The notes under the pieces were generated by a model. That model had not been told where the DNA came from. It did no database searches and saw nothing but the letters and a program-made list of their open reading frames with translations. Positions 12,050 through 40,521 of a stretch of DNA of 64,000 nucleotides are shown piece after piece; the first letter of the stretch is position 1, and every line of letters starts with the position of its first letter. The stretch is from Tequatrovirus BCH953P4: the sequence record OZ035789.1; one strand, written 5' to 3'. The position numbers were made by a program, and so were the translations under genes.

Positions 12050-12520
12050 TTAATCATGTTTCCACACCCCATCGGTATTTGACCAAAGTCGCTGATTATC
12101 TGATCCTCGCCACAGCTTTTTGGTCGGAAGATTTTTCTCATACTTCCCATCAATAATAACATCAACATATTTAAGCATTTCTAGTTGTTTAATATCTTCA
12201 AACTTATATCCTGTCCACAACCAAATGCTTTTATTGGGATAAAGATTTTTAATAGTTTGAACCACAGAGTGAATCACGTCTCTGTTATCAGGATAAAGAG
12301 GGTCACCTCCGGTTATAGTCAATCCTTCTATATAATCATTATTCAAACATTCAATTAATTGTTCTAGTGTTTCACCAGTGAATGGAACACCATTTCTAGC
12401 ATTCCATGTTGATTTATTATAACACCCTTCGCATTTATGCAAACAACCTGTAACGAAAAGAACGACCCTGCATCCAGGGCCATTCACAAAATCACAGGGA
12501 TAAAATCTATCGTAATTCAT
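12050..12520 (-). CDS. nrdG: Anaerobic ribonucleotide reductase activating protein NrdG (radical SAM), 156 aa
   Basis: CxxxCxxC-type cluster (CLHKCEGCYN) and GGDP motif; ATGA overlap with nrdD stop. Confidence 0.9.
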   Translation of the reverse strand: MNYDRFYPCDFVNGPGCRVVLFVTGCLHKCEGCYNKSTWNARNGVPFTGETLEQLIECLNNDYIEGLTITGGDPLYPDNRDVIHSVVQTIKNLYPNKSIWLWTGYKFEDIKQLEMLKYVDVIIDGKYEKNLPTKKLWRGSDNQRLWSNTDGVWKHD

Positions 12521-13796
12521 TGGTGTTTAACCCTATGCATGATTTCTTTGTTTTTACCGAGATTAAATCCGCGTTCGTTCGGGTTTCCAAGATATCCGCA
12601 TGTTCTTCTTATGGTATTCATCTTTTTAGGATCAGTTTCTCCACAAATAGAACAAACAAATCCGTTTTCAGTAGGAGTCATTTCATGGGTACTTCCGCAT
12701 GTAAAACATTTATCTACCGGCATGTTAACACCAAAATAATCTAAATGTTGTGCAGCATAATCCCATACGGCCTCAAGGCCTTTTAAGTTATTTTTCATAT
12801 CAGGAAGTTCAACATAAGAAATGTGACCACCTGTCGCAATGAAATGATATGGCGCTTCACGAGAAATCTTTTCAAACGGAGTAATATTTTCTTCTACTGA
12901 AACATGGAAACTGTTAGTGTACCAGCCTTTATCGGTAACATCTTTTACACTTCCATATTTTTCTGTATCAAGTTTACAGAAGCGATAACAAAGGTTTTCA
13001 GCAGGAGTCGAATATAAACTAAAAGCAAATCCAGTTCTTTCAGTCCACTGTTTAAGATGAGCATTCATCTTAGTTAAAATTTCTTGTCCAATATCACGAC
13101 CGACAAGAATATTCAATTCGTGAATACCAATGTATCCTAGGGACACTGAACTTCTACCGTTTTTAAATAACTCAATTATGTCGTCATCAGGTTTAAGACG
13201 AACCCCGAATGCACCTTCTTGGTAAAGAATAGGAGCAACAGTAGCTTTAACTCCTTTTAAGGAACTAATTCTACACATCAAAGCTTCAAAACATAAATCC
13301 ATTCGTTCATTAAATAGCTCAACAAATTTCTGTTCATTGAACTGTGTTCCAATATAAGAATCTAACGCAATGCGAGGAAGATTCAGTGTTACAACACCAA
13401 GATTATTACGTCCATCAAGAATTTCATTACCAGTTGAATCTTTCCATACGCTCAAGAAACTACGGCAACCCATTGGAGAAACAGGAACAGATGAACCAGT
13501 GATAGCTTTATTGTTTTTAGCTGAAATAATATCAGGATACATCCTTTTGCTTGCACACTCTAGAGCAAGCTGCTTAATATCATAGTTCGGATCGTCTTTA
13601 TAAAGATTAACACCTTCTTCGACGAACATAACAAGCTTAGGAAAAATAGGAGTTATCCCATCACGACCGAGACCTTTAATACGATTTTTCAGAATTGCTT
13701 TCTGAATCATTCGTTCAGTCCAGTCAGTTCCCGTACCAAATGTAATTGTTACAAAAGGTGTTTGTCCGTTAGAGCTGAAAAGTGTATTTACTTCAT
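12517..13796 (-). CDS. nrdD: Anaerobic ribonucleotide reductase NrdD, exon 2
   Basis: Continues the exon 1 frame after the predicted splice (…QAYE|YEVNTLFSS…); C-terminal glycyl-radical and Cys-rich region; spliced product is 605 aa. Confidence 0.85.
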
Positions 13797-13822
13797 CATT
13801 ATATTCAGCATGAGTCGCAAAT

Positions 13823-14593
13823 TCATGCCCGTTTATATGAAACAACAAAATTTGGATAGTCCATAGATATGCAACGTTCTTTTATAGTGCTAGGATGAAA
13901 ATTTAGCGCTTTAGCTGCTTCTATATAAGACGTATACTTAATACCGTCAACAACCACATATTCAGGAACTTTATGAATAGTAGTCTTAATACTCAAAACA
14001 AGAGGATGAGTTTCGACTTCACTTTCAGTGCAATTTAAATATTCCGCTGCTTTTTTAAAACTTCTAAAAGTTTTATTTTTAAGCTTTATCGATACTTGTT
14101 TTTTACTTTTTCGACTATTGATATTATTTTGCACATGTTCCTTAGATCTTCCGTTTTTAGCATAATATTCAGCTACAGAAGATTTTATATTGTTTTTATG
14201 AGATTCGGATAACACTTTACCCTTATGAGCATCTCTTAATTTTTGAATATGTTCTTCAGTATCCGGATGCTTATAAAACTTTTTACCGCCTATGGATTTA
14301 TTTAAACATTTTTTGCTATAAAAATATTTACGTATGACCTCTTCTTCATGTTTTAATGCATCTTTATAACTATCAAATGTTTTTAAAATTATCCATTTAG
14401 TAGGTGTATCAGTTTTTAAGCGTTCATTTATATACTTAGATGACGTTGTGTAAGTTTTCCAGTTTGTGGGCTTGTTTTTAATTGTTCTAAATTTTTTATA
14501 ACCGATATAAATGTCGCCATTAGAAAACTTAACTAAGTATGTAAATGCGTCTTTATCTTTTATTTTAGTACAACGTCTTTTTATCCATTTCAT
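13823..14593 (-). CDS. I-TevII: Intron-encoded GIY-YIG-type homing endonuclease, I-TevII-like, 256 aa
   Basis: ATG start; GDIYIGYKK motif, NUMOD3-like and helix-turn-helix-like C-terminal modules; lies inside the nrdD intron as T4 I-TevII does. Confidence 0.7.
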   Translation of the reverse strand: MKWIKRRCTKIKDKDAFTYLVKFSNGDIYIGYKKFRTIKNKPTNWKTYTTSSKYINERLKTDTPTKWIILKTFDSYKDALKHEEEVIRKYFYSKKCLNKSIGGKKFYKHPDTEEHIQKLRDAHKGKVLSESHKNNIKSSVAEYYAKNGRSKEHVQNNINSRKSKKQVSIKLKNKTFRSFKKAAEYLNCTESEVETHPLVLSIKTTIHKVPEYVVVDGIKYTSYIEAAKALNFHPSTIKERCISMDYPNFVVSYKRA

Positions 14594-14630: not shown

Positions 14631-14841
14631 CAAGATGACTGCTGCATGTCGCCATGCAGATTAGACTATATCTTCATCTTTCGATGCCGGCCGTTTCGAA
14701 TAGCATTAGCTTCTATTCTACACCGCTACATTCATCACGGTTAGTCGTTAGGCATTTAGTTCAAAAGAACATTTAGCACGGGATTGTCTACTAGAGAGGT
14801 TCCCCGTTTAGACCGGTTTTACATGAGCCTGAATTAAATTA

Positions 14842-15379
14842 ACTCATACGCCTGAAACGCGTCGTATACATCTTTTTCTGTTTTAGATTGAGCATAATTC
14901 AACGCATCAGCGATTTGCCATTTTTCTGCATCCTCAATATGTTTTGCATAGGTGCGTTTAACATAAGGAGAAAGTACTTTATCTACATTAGCAAAAGTCG
15001 TTCCGCCATATTGGTGAGAAGCAACCTGTGCAGTAATTTGTGCCATAATTGCAGTAGCAACACCGATTGATTTAGGAGTTTCAATCTGTGCATTACCAAG
15101 CTTAAATCCGTTCTCAAGCATTCCTTTTAAATCTACTAAACAGCAATTAGTAAATGGAAGAGCAGGGGAATAATCAATATCGTGGAAATGAATAATTCCG
15201 CTTTCATGCGCTTTCATAATAAAAGACGGGACCATATTTTTGGCAATGTGTTTAGACACAATACCAGCCATAAGGTCCCGTTGAGTTGGAAAAACACGAG
15301 AATCTTTGTTAGCATTCTCGTTTAAAAGGTCTTTATTAGTTTTATGAATCAATCCTTCAATTTCTTTTTCAATTGTCAT
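14842..15379 (-). CDS. nrdD: Anaerobic ribonucleotide reductase NrdD, exon 1
   Basis: N-terminus MTIEKEIEGLIHKTNKDLLNENANKDSRVFPTQRDLMAGIV matches remembered T4 NrdD; ATGA overlap with gene 49 stop. Confidence 0.85.
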
Positions 15380-31471: not shown

Positions 31472-31750
31472 TTATTCTTTAAATCTAATCAATTTATTCA
31501 TAGACTTTGTAACTTCTGCACGAACCTCATGTAGATTTTTGAGCTGTTCAAGACGCTGCTCATAGTAAGCAATTTCATCTTCTTCGAGACAGTCCTGTGA
31601 ATCTTCTTTAAGATAGCGTGCATAGTCCTGGAAAGCGTTACGGACTACTTCCTGGAAATCATCAAGACTTTGAATTTTCTTAGGAGCAACAGATACACGA
31701 CGAGGGGCAGTATAATACTCATAACCAAACCCTGCGCTTAATTGAGCCAT
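31472..31750 (-). CDS. Hypothetical acidic protein, about 92 aa (vs.3 position)
   Basis: ORF-track start is GTG; internal ATG chosen. Confidence 0.4.
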
Positions 31751-32052
31751 TAATATTTTTCCTCTGGTTGGAACACAGCACGACAAGCCCACATACTGGC
31801 TTCTTTGAGTTTCGTTTTAGCAATAGTTAACTGATCGAGGCTTTCGGCATAATTCTTCGCGAATTCACAGTCTTCACAATTATCTAGTGCTTCCCAGAAT
31901 TCATCGTATAAAGCATCAAAGATAAGTCCTAAACGAACTTCAGCGTCTTTGATGGCATTCACTTTACCGATTTTCTTTTCAGTATGCGGCTTATAACCCT
32001 TAATATCTTCAATCATATTTGACTTCCTCACCAGTACATAAATCATATTCAA
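31750..32052 (-). CDS. Hypothetical protein (vs.4 position); possible Acb2-like cyclic-nucleotide sponge by position only
   Basis: ORF track; start may be an internal Met; assignment rests on gene order. Confidence 0.35.
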
Positions 32053-32230
32053 CTAAACGAATAGGTTCATGAATGCCATATCCCTGAACAGAAATTTCTG
32101 TAGTAGGATAAATTCCATCAATATCACCCATGTTCCATGCTTCGTTAAATTGCTGTTCGCCTGAATTACTAAACCATTCGGCAAAAGCATTTAGCACATC
32201 TTCAGAACCTTCAATAATTATCTTTGCCAT
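32009..32230 (-). CDS. Hypothetical acidic protein, 73 aa
   Basis: ORF track. Confidence 0.45.
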   Translation of the reverse strand: MAKIIIEGSEDVLNAFAEWFSNSGEQQFNEAWNMGDIDGIYPTTEISVQGYGIHEPIRLVEYDLCTGEEVKYD

Positions 32231-32592
32231 TACAAACTCTCGGTAAAGGTACGAGCGATAACATCGCGCTGCTGTTCCGGAGTCAGAGAGTTAAAGCGAA
32301 CTGCATAACCGGATACACGGATGGTCAGCTGCGGATATTTTTCCGGATGCTTAACTGCATCTTCCAGAGTTTCACGACGCAGAACGTTAACGTTCAGGTG
32401 TTGACCACCTTCAATTTTAACTGTAGGTTGTGTTTCAATTTCAATTTCACGGGCGTGCAAACCATAGAAAATTTCTGGGTCTACAAAAGAGTCCTCTTTA
32501 AAGGTTTTAGAGACAATAATTCGCGCTTGAATACCATCTTCAAAATAAATAGTACCTTTATGCGTGCCTTCAAGAATTTGATATGCTTTCAT
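32230..32592 (-). CDS. Autonomous glycyl radical cofactor-like protein (GrcA/YfiD-like), 120 aa
   Basis: C-terminal …[55 protein letters not shown] contains the RVSGYAV glycyl-radical motif of PFL/GrcA. Confidence 0.8.
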
Positions 32593-32599
32593 ATAAACC

Positions 32600-32980
32600 T
32601 CAATTAGAAAATAAATTTATCCAAGATTGTTCTTTAATTAAAAATGGCTCAGAATCATATGCCATTAAACTCTGTGTGATTAGTCCTTTAAAAGGCCCAT
32701 CAATAAATTCCATGGTAAAATATGGAATTTTATTCATTAGCCGTGCATTAGGAGCAGTACATAAAACTCTGCATCCTTTGAATACACCCTTTTGTAATTT
32801 GTATTGCTTGGGATAAAATTCGCTCAAAATGTTATTATTCGCTAAAATTTCAAAATGATTCACCAATTTATTTTTAATAGTTTTTGGTGAAAAATAGAGA
32901 TATTCGAAAAGCTGTGCGTCTGTCATCATTGCATTCCGATTACGAAAAACTGTGGACGAGTAATACCACCAATGCAACAT
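32600..32980 (-). CDS. Hypothetical protein, 126 aa
   Basis: ORF track. Confidence 0.5.
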
Positions 32981-39162: not shown

Positions 39163-39239
<77 letters not shown>

Positions 39240-39242
39240 TAG

Positions 39243-39908
39243 TTAAAATTTCATTTTTCGACCTTTAAACCATCCTTCTGGAATTGGGTCAGTTTTCTTA
39301 ATACGTTTAGAAACTTTTTCATCTAATGAATGAATCCACATCATACCAAATTGGGAATTCTTTTCACCTTGTTGGTGTTTATTTCTGGCGTGAGATTCTT
39401 TCATTTTATTAATAGTTTCAGGAGTATGGGTCTTACCCAAGAAAGATTTAGTATTTAAAAATTTCTCTCTATACTTAGGATTATCCCAAAACTGTTTAAA
39501 CCTTTCTGAACCCATTTTACGATATTTTTCTTTAAGGTCTGGGTCGTTCTCAAATCTGGTTTTAAAAGCGGCAGCTCCTTTTAAGGAAGCTTCTTTCTTT
39601 TTATCCAAATATTCTTTAGTGTTTAAATGGTCCCAACCACCTTCACCACCTAATTTCAAATTATAAACATCAGAGCGCTTTAAAAACTCTTCAGTCACAA
39701 TATTCTTTTCTGACTCAAACATAGAGGTTTTATCGTCAAAGAACTCTAATATTTCTTTAGAAAAATTTTCTATACCATACTTATCTTGGGCTCTTTTTAA
39801 TAATTTACCAGAACCCATATATCCATCATCTAAATTTTCGGTAGAATGAGCGCCTATATAGATTTTATTATTAATTTTATTTGTTATTTTATAAGTGTAA
39901 TGGAACAT
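39243..39908 (-). CDS. segB: GIY-YIG homing endonuclease SegB, 221 aa
   Basis: Canonical GIY-YIG N-terminus YKITNKINNKIYIGAHS; located inside the tRNA cluster as in T4. Confidence 0.85.
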   Translation of the reverse strand: MFHYTYKITNKINNKIYIGAHSTENLDDGYMGSGKLLKRAQDKYGIENFSKEILEFFDDKTSMFESEKNIVTEEFLKRSDVYNLKLGGEGGWDHLNTKEYLDKKKEASLKGAAAFKTRFENDPDLKEKYRKMGSERFKQFWDNPKYREKFLNTKSFLGKTHTPETINKMKESHARNKHQQGEKNSQFGMMWIHSLDEKVSKRIKKTDPIPEGWFKGRKMKF

Positions 39909-39930
39909 AAATATCTCCTATTTCTAAGAG

Positions 39931-39938
39931 TATTTATG
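39931..39938 (-). promoter_or_regulatory. Near-consensus late promoter (CATAAATA) upstream of segB
   Basis: 7 of 8 match, about 22 nt upstream of the segB ATG. Confidence 0.3.
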
Positions 39939-39949
39939 TTCCCAAAATA

Positions 39950-40021
39950 TGGCCCTGGGTGGAATTGAACCACCATCTGGCGATTATGAGTCGCTTGCTT
40001 GAACCTTCCAGCTACAGGGCC
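39950..40021 (-). tRNA. tRNA-Ile (anticodon CAU, presumably modified to read AUA), CCA not encoded
   Basis: Acceptor GGCCCTG/CAGGGCC, anticodon loop CTCATAA, T-loop TTCAATT. Confidence 0.75.
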
Positions 40022-40027
40022 TTGATA

Positions 40028-40100
40028 TGCTGATTGACGGAATCGAACCGCCGACATCCTCATTACAAGTGAGGTGCTCTACCTACTGAGCTAAATCAGC
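40028..40100 (-). tRNA. tRNA-Thr (anticodon UGU), CCA not encoded
   Basis: Acceptor GCTGATT/AATCAGC, D-arm GCTCAGTAGGTAGAGC, anticodon loop CTTGTAA, T-loop TTCGATT. Confidence 0.8.
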
Positions 40101-40107
40101 GAAATTA

Positions 40108-40194
40108 CGGAGGCGATAGGATTTGAACCTATGAGTCGCCGGAGCGACTGCCGGTTTTCAAGACCGGTGCATTAAACCACTCTGCCACGCCTCC
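40108..40194 (-). tRNA. tRNA-Ser (anticodon UGA), class II long variable arm, CCA not encoded
   Basis: Acceptor GGAGGCG/CGCCTCC, anticodon loop CTTGAAA, long variable arm, T-loop TTCAAAT. Confidence 0.8.
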
Positions 40195-40196
40195 AG

Positions 40197-40270
40197 TCTC
40201 CGCGGCAGGATTTGAACCTGCGACATTCTGCTCCCAAAGCAGACGCTCTACCAAACTGAGCTACACGGAG
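40197..40270 (-). tRNA. tRNA-Pro (anticodon UGG), CCA not encoded
   Basis: Acceptor CTCCGTG/CGCGGAG, D-arm GCTCAGTTTGGTAGAGC, anticodon loop TTTGGGA. Confidence 0.8.
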
Positions 40271-40282
40271 TAAATTAAATTT

Positions 40283-40354
<72 letters not shown>

Positions 40355-40360
40355 AAACTT

Positions 40361-40447
40361 TGGTACGAGAAGTGGGACTCGAACCCACAAGGAAATCATT
40401 CCGCAGCATTTTAAGTGCTGTGCCTTTACCAATTTGACCATTCTCGC
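40361..40447 (-). tRNA. tRNA-Leu (anticodon UAA), class II long variable arm, CCA encoded
   Basis: Acceptor GCGAGAA/TTCTCGT, anticodon loop CTTAAAA, long variable arm, T-arm GTGGG-TTCGAGT-CCCAC, 3' ACCA. Confidence 0.8.
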
Positions 40448-40448
40448 G

Positions 40449-40521
40449 CTGGGAATAAAGGACTCGAACCTTTGCATCTAGCAGTCAAAGTGCTATGCCT
40501 TACCAACTTGGCTAATTCCCA
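40449..40521 (-). tRNA. tRNA-Gln (anticodon UUG), CCA not encoded
   Basis: Acceptor TGGGAAT/ATTCCCA, D-arm GCCAAGTTGGTAAGGC, anticodon loop CTTTGAC, T-loop TTCGAGT. Confidence 0.8.

Follow-up and report, generated by a model that had tools for sequence, protein, structure and literature searches.

Pyruvate formate-lyase (PFL) carries its radical on G734, which is also the site at which oxygen cleaves the enzyme (PMC8683613). That article, citing Wagner et al. 2001 (BBRC 285:456), presents Y06I of bacteriophage T4 and YfiD of Escherichia coli, both of ∼14 kDa, as the only two validated PFL spare-part proteins. According to the same article, Y06I and YfiD receive a glycyl radical from the PFL-activating enzyme and restore in vitro the activity of PFL cleaved by O2. 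The gene encoding Y06I, vs.6, was noted in 2006 as a conserved Gly_radical ORF present in all T4-like genomes (PMC1524935). The identity of vs.6 and its spare-part function are already known, many GenBank records already name the gene GrcA, and the gene itself adds nothing new, Y06I having been the textbook second glycyl-radical "spare part" since 2001.

The bacterial counterpart, E. coli GrcA (YfiD; PDB 6owr; TIGR04365; IPR011140), is likewise a stand-alone PFL-type glycyl-radical domain protein of ∼14 kDa, but Vs.6 is 7 residues shorter and its N-terminal half is strongly diverged. GrcA is encoded at the host grcA locus, whereas vs.6 is phage encoded and belongs to an operon made up of small early genes. 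The radical domain of PflB (and of TdcE) displays the same RVSGYAV motif and Gly734 context, but PflB has 759 residues and Vs.6 corresponds to the radical domain only.

At the DNA level, a close parallel is found, for example, in cyanophages, whose psbA exchanges segments with psbA of Prochlorococcus and Synechococcus, a case of intragenic recombination between host and phage in auxiliary metabolic genes. We describe here a tract of vs.6 that resembles this system, in that patches identical to the host and matching the infected host clade lie inside a metabolic gene of phage type. Unlike cyanophage psbA, vs.6 belongs to a coliphage of the T4 type, which is strictly lytic and degrades the DNA of its host, and the vs.6 tract always fills the whole stretch of DNA homology, with both ends anchored by phage-specific sequence.

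Results

The window, a stretch of 64,000 nucleotides of Tequatrovirus BCH953P4 (OZ035789.1), is part of a Tequatrovirus (T4-like) genome. vs.6 lies on its minus strand at 32230..32592 and encodes, from an ATG start codon to a TAA stop codon, a GrcA-like phage autonomous glycyl-radical cofactor of 120 amino acids, an assignment based on the translation of the open reading frame, on matches to Pfam Gly_radical, GrcA (6owr), TIGR04365, and phrog_1209, and on the names given in phage records. Sequence comparisons confirmed that this reading frame is a real gene, the orthologue of T4 vs.6/Y06I, since the two products are identical at 119 of 120 residues (99.2%), with T54 here and P54 in T4 as the sole change. 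Proteins 100% identical to that of the window occur in other Tequatrovirus records. A 2.1-kb slice around vs.6 matches 818 phage records, the best being Tequatrovirus NIC06P2 (99.3%), and many T4-like coliphages are 96 to 98% identical over this slice. The gene order in annotated relatives (96 to 99% over 2.1 kb) is tk-vs-regB-vs.3-acb2 (vs.4)-vs.5-vs.6-vs.7-vs.8-denV-e, and vs.6 of the window occupies the conserved position, in the vs cluster found between regB and denV/e of T4-type genomes. The gene at this position is labeled "autonomous glycyl radical cofactor" in relatives and vs.6 in T2 and other records. Several GenBank records mislabel it as "pyruvate formate-lyase," "acetyltransferase-related protein," or "2-ketobutyrate formate-lyase."

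vs.7 lies upstream of vs.6 and vs.5 downstream. A Shine-Dalgarno-like GAGG (32598..32601, minus strand) is located 5 nt 5' of the vs.6 ATG and overlaps the TGA stop codon of vs.7. At the other end, the vs.6 stop codon and the vs.5 start codon overlap by one base in a TAATG read from the sequence (32228..32232, minus strand), an arrangement that likely provides translational coupling of the two genes. The overlap of the TAA with the ATG of the next ORF makes vs.6 part of a tightly packed minus-strand operon. Scanning for promoters and terminators around vs.6 yielded counts no higher than expected from shuffled sequence, and an Rfam search of the whole window reported 8 tRNAs only, with no match at vs.6. 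Two genes downstream of vs.6, the same operon encodes Acb2 (T4 vs.4; 31750-32052, minus strand), a known anti-CBASS cyclic-nucleotide sponge recognized here by Pfam Acb2_Tad1_hairpin (E = 5e-19).

The original prediction of a GrcA/YfiD-like reading frame with an RVSGYAV motif at 32230-32592 was borne out by an exact match of the translation and by the Pfam, GrcA, and TIGR04365 matches. Gly_radical (PF01228) is the only Pfam domain of Vs.6 (E = 2.2e-18; 67 bits, for a cutoff of 22), residues 60 to 101 aligning with the C-terminal part of the profile (65 to 106 of 106). In a phmmer search of the PDB, the best match was E. coli GrcA (6owr; E = 4.6e-42; Vs.6 22-120 on GrcA 28-127) and the second was PFL (1h16; E = 4.8e-26; Vs.6 58-120 on PFL 697-759). 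BLASTP against E. coli GrcA gave 74 identities over 100 positions (E = 9e-53), and GrcA was the closest homologue of Vs.6 in every search run. The predicted closeness of the C terminus to enterobacterial GrcA turned out to be complete identity, residues 61 to 120 of Vs.6 being 100% identical to the last 60 residues of E. coli GrcA (68 to 127). Vs.6 residue 120 aligns with GrcA 127 and with PFL 759, and Gly95, within RVSGYAV (residues 92 to 98), falls opposite GrcA G102 and PFL G734; it is the predicted radical glycine, and its codon lies at 32308..32310 on the minus strand. The proposed alignment to the C termini of GrcA and PFL revealed homology extending well beyond the motif. Vs.6 has the attributes of a GrcA-type protein, namely, a small stand-alone protein with a PFL-type radical domain and an RVxG[FWY] motif in which the Gly is aligned.

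The N-terminal half had been described as unrelated to GrcA. It is instead a diverged GrcA N terminus, since on its own it is 35% identical to GrcA over 40 amino acids (GrcA residues 28 to 67; E = 2e-6), and TIGR04365 "spare_glycyl," by far the best NCBIfam model, aligns with Vs.6 from residue 20 to residue 120 (model 25 to 126 of 126). The score of 154.6 bits falls short of the curated equivalog cutoff of 170 bits, which serves for annotation and was calibrated with bacterial sequences, because the N terminus of Vs.6 is diverged and 7 residues shorter. We class Vs.6 among the GrcA-like proteins, as a phage branch distinct from the strict equivalogs of bacterial GrcA, and the score below the cutoff makes it possible that the N-terminal part has a somewhat different role. 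The phrog_1209 profile matches Vs.6 over its full length (E about 5e-63 [5.4e-63]; residues 1 to 120 on profile positions 1 to 121 of 121). This family is labeled "unknown function" in PHROGs v4, although its function in vitro was published in 2001.

Homologues of vs.6 were found in 1587 phage records, from Straboviridae genera, T5-like Demerecviridae, and jumbo phages, and 1539 of them hold an intact full-length ORF. Such a distribution across families argues for selection. The T5-like Tequintavirus phages Spc35 and KPP2018 encode a 122-amino-acid GrcA-like protein ∼52% identical to Vs.6, the gene of which adjoins tRNA genes in Spc35. The DNA of the radical domain is here 73 to 74% identical to that of any host, without a host-identical tract, and this gene seems to stem from either a separate, older acquisition or a transfer between phage families.

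Comparison with host DNA revealed that the two halves of vs.6 differ in composition and in similarity to grcA. The 5' half (∼codons 1 to 59; 32415..32592, minus strand) is phage-type, AT-rich DNA with a GC content of 0.34 and encodes the diverged GrcA N-terminal region. The 3' half (32230..32414, minus strand) has a GC content of 0.48, encodes the glycyl-radical domain (residues 61 to 120), and is a host-derived tract with 97.3% DNA identity to E. coli grcA. Identity to grcA is low over the first 178 nt of the gene and then switches abruptly to an exact match of 151 nt (gene nt 179 to 329; 32264..32414, minus strand), the longest common substring of the two genes. The last ∼34 nt contain 5 synonymous differences, the final ∼2 to 4 codons keep phage-type synonymous codons, and similarity ends at the stop codon. 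The identity of 97.3% over the last 185 nt (nt 179 to 363) was found with grcA of all 5426 complete E. coli genomes, and the suspicion voiced in the original prediction that the gene is host derived proved right for this portion. A megablast search of the whole window against the same 5426 genomes returned a single match, the vs.6 3' tract (∼32226-32414); the 8 phage tRNA genes (39166-40521) matched none of these genomes. T4 vs.6 (Y06I_BPT4; phrog_1209) has the same position, the same Gly95 site, and the same mosaic structure with a 3' half identical to E. coli grcA. Its exact host run measures 178 nt versus 151 nt in the window, where the run is shorter because phage-type codons (GAT, ACC, GAG, AGT, and TTG) reach further in from the 3' end.

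The tract is 97% identical to grcA versus 76 to 79% to pflB and tdcE, which identifies grcA as the donor and led us to reject pflB and tdcE. We also considered whether codon usage or selection could account for the DNA identity. Over the same segment, grcA of E. coli differs from grcA of Citrobacter, Salmonella, Klebsiella, and Enterobacter at 14 to 29 sites, nearly all of them synonymous, for a near-identical peptide, and from that of another Escherichia species at 2 sites. The abundance of synonymous differences among host genes implies that the identity between the phage and E. coli results from shared ancestry and not from codon constraint.

The mosaic recurs in other phages, with a donor that depends on the host. 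Between the window and Mosigvirus, identity is ∼71% in the flanking genes, 87.6% in the 5' half of vs.6, and 95.7% in its 3' half; each of the two 3' halves is 96 to 97% identical to E. coli grcA, and the differences are mostly private. The 5' half of the window gene is ∼72% identical to that of Jiaodavirus. The same 5' boundary of the tract is seen in ∼640 phage records. With K. pneumoniae grcA as the query, 106 phage records were retrieved, nearly all from Klebsiella phages, which are 95 to 99% identical over ∼170 nt and share this 5' boundary; the tract of KPV15 shows 1 difference from K. pneumoniae grcA in 156 nt. Among 22 sites that distinguish E. coli grcA from K. pneumoniae grcA, the E. 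coli base is present at 21 in the window, 22 in T4, and 20 in Mosigvirus, and the K. pneumoniae base at 13 in KP179, 18 in Nispero, and 19 in KPV15, three Jiaodavirus phages of Klebsiella. KP179 and Nispero share 98.9% identity over the 5' half of vs.6. The lower value for the 3' half, 93.5%, is explained by the Klebsiella-like stretch of KP179, which is limited to about the first 100 nt. From these comparisons, the host-like tract appears younger than the phage genera and host specific, which is the outcome of the nucleotide-level comparison with host grcA that had been proposed as a means to date the transfer.

Other copies depart from this pattern. Those of Pseudotevenvirus, Slopekvirus, and Karamvirus are ∼77 to 84% identical to any sampled host grcA and, judged by their sequences, look like the unconverted older state. 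Salmonella grcA matched nothing above 84% in the phage collection, so no Salmonella-type tract was found there, and Tequatroviruses isolated on Yersinia retain the E. coli tract. In the record of Klebsiella phage KPV15 (322-683), the 5' half of vs.6 carries a frame break and is split by the annotation into two short coding sequences, and the 3' half is intact; the break is either a sequencing error or a sign that the copy is decaying and that host conversion keeps part of it "fresh."

The original prediction had also pointed to the glycyl-radical enzyme NrdD and its activase NrdG about 20 kb away, and both are indeed encoded at 17 to 20 kb from vs.6: nrdG at 12050-12520 and nrdD, split into two exon ORFs, at 14834-15379 and 12517-13848 on the minus strand. 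Between the nrdD exons lies an ORF of 256 amino acids (13823-14593) for a homing endonuclease (phrog_314, E = 4e-29, with weak GIY-YIG SegE/NUMOD1 matches). At the gathering threshold, the Rfam scan reported no group I intron in the split nrdD.

Discussion

Our results make it highly probable that vs.6 is a spare-part GrcA homologue that was acquired long ago and whose 3' half has since been overwritten by grcA of the current host. We propose that the phage Vs.6 protein would be made inside the infected cell, where the host PFL-activating enzyme (PflA, a radical SAM protein) would install a radical on Gly95. The activated 14-kDa protein would then dock on host PFL molecules that have lost their C-terminal radical domain through oxygen cleavage at Gly734 and replace the missing domain, so that the conversion of pyruvate to acetyl-CoA and formate could resume. 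The radical domain of Vs.6 being identical to that of host GrcA, its recognition by PflA and its docking on PFL should match those of GrcA. The phage would benefit from continued fermentative, acetate-linked ATP production and acetyl-CoA supply in the microaerobic gut, where oxygen fluctuates. Radical installation, docking, and PFL rescue were shown in vitro for T4 Y06I, identical to Vs.6 at 119 of 120 residues, and we infer the benefit in vivo: as host expression is shut off and GrcA and PFL are not remade, a phage spare part would keep the PFL route running. An in vivo phenotype of vs.6 or a test of its benefit to the phage was not found in the searchable literature, and the gene is not known to be essential. 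The repair of oxygen-damaged host PFL put forward in the original prediction is supported, and this reading was already tested in vitro in 2001 with T4 Y06I, which rescued cleaved PFL according to PMC8683613, citing Wagner et al. 2001.

The presence of nrdD and nrdG within the same 64-kb window raises the alternative that Vs.6, with phage NrdG as its activase, supplies phage NrdD with a replacement radical domain or a reserve of radicals. Cross-activation is conceivable, as NrdG is an activase related to PflA. In Aeromonas phage PX29, the vs.6 homologue (401-778) comes directly after nrdG, whose end it overlaps, and before nrdC and nrdH. This synteny, which is absent from the window, gives a hint that vs.6 is connected with anaerobic nucleotide reduction in certain lineages. 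A role in nucleotide metabolism was proposed earlier from the Pfam hit alone (PMC1524935). However, the best BLASTP alignment of Vs.6 with the C-terminal exon (exon 2) of the window NrdD has an E value of 2.7 and leaves the motif region unaligned, whereas the last 60 residues of Vs.6 are shared in full with GrcA (100% identity) and match the PFL C terminus with an E value of 4.8e-26. The tract was copied from host grcA and not from nrdD, vs.6 stands 17 to 20 kb from nrdDG in another gene cluster, and the biochemistry summarized in PMC8683613 concerns PFL and the PFL-activating enzyme. Having found no similarity between Vs.6 and NrdD, including its radical domain, we set aside a spare part of NrdD as the main reading; the interaction with NrdG or NrdD that the original prediction offered as an option finds no support in the window and is, in our opinion, extremely unlikely.

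Vs.6 could also act on PFL in the opposite direction, as a decoy or modulator that titrates the PFL-activating enzyme or occupies PFL and so redirects the pyruvate/formate flux or blocks a host response. With its exact copy of the host radical domain, Vs.6 necessarily competes for PflA with the GrcA and PFL of the host, and the phage-specific N-terminal half could confer a different behavior; we nevertheless judge this role very unlikely, given that T4 Y06I restored the activity of cleaved PFL in vitro and behaved as an activator (PMC8683613) and that evidence of inhibition was not found. The recurrent replacement of the 3' half by host DNA, the out-of-frame 5' half in the KPV15 record, and the "unknown function" label of the PHROGs family would suit yet another proposal, in which vs.6 is a piece of host DNA that is carried along without selection and stays intact solely through repair by host recombination. 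This proposal is hardly credible in view of the 1539 intact ORFs among 1587, spread over phage families that are very distantly related and have no host-identical DNA in common. The reading frame of the 5' half, which is beyond the reach of host repair, has nonetheless stayed open across genera, with a conserved motif (ending ..ARxIVSK), and the Shine-Dalgarno sequence and translational coupling are preserved.

We envision that grcA entered an ancestral phage of the T4 type at an early date and that the N-terminal half drifted toward phage composition, the radical-domain half staying ∼80% similar to host grcA, enough for pairing. The 3' half would then have been replaced by homologous recombination with grcA of the host, Escherichia for Tequatrovirus and Mosigvirus and Klebsiella for Jiaodavirus. 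T4 infection combines abundant host DNA fragments with a very active recombination system. The tract occupies essentially the whole homology interval and stops where homology stops, the last 2 to 4 codons preceding the overlapping vs.5 start. Such ends fit the annealing of host single strands with trimming of the nonhomologous flaps, or branch migration halted by heterology. On sequence grounds, we infer no fewer than two replacements by host DNA, one with Escherichia and another with Klebsiella as the donor, and probably more. Within the phages of E. coli, one conversion followed by spread from phage to phage and several independent conversions account for these data alike. Based on a base-by-base comparison of ∼10 phage genes, we are inclined to think, with some reserve, that the radical-domain half is repeatedly overwritten by grcA of whichever enterobacterial species is currently infected, with tract ends that differ between near-identical phages. 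The mosaic of vs.6 at the DNA level was not found in the searchable literature; an earlier mention in the T4 genome review (PMC150520) or in Wagner et al. 2001 is possible.

The mosaic represents a quantifiable exchange of ∼180 nt, recurrent and host specific, between the host chromosome and a strictly lytic phage that degrades host DNA. If our interpretation is correct, vs.6 would be a natural, datable reporter of homologous recombination from the host to a lytic phage and of recent host history. Possible uses are as a marker of the recent host of a T4-type phage and as a system for studying the rates and genetic requirements of host-to-phage recombination. The mosaic is also a prompt to test the importance of vs.6 for phage growth under the fluctuating oxygen of the gut, and, under the same proviso, conversion by grcA may keep the phage spare part matched to the PFL and the PFL-activase of the host.
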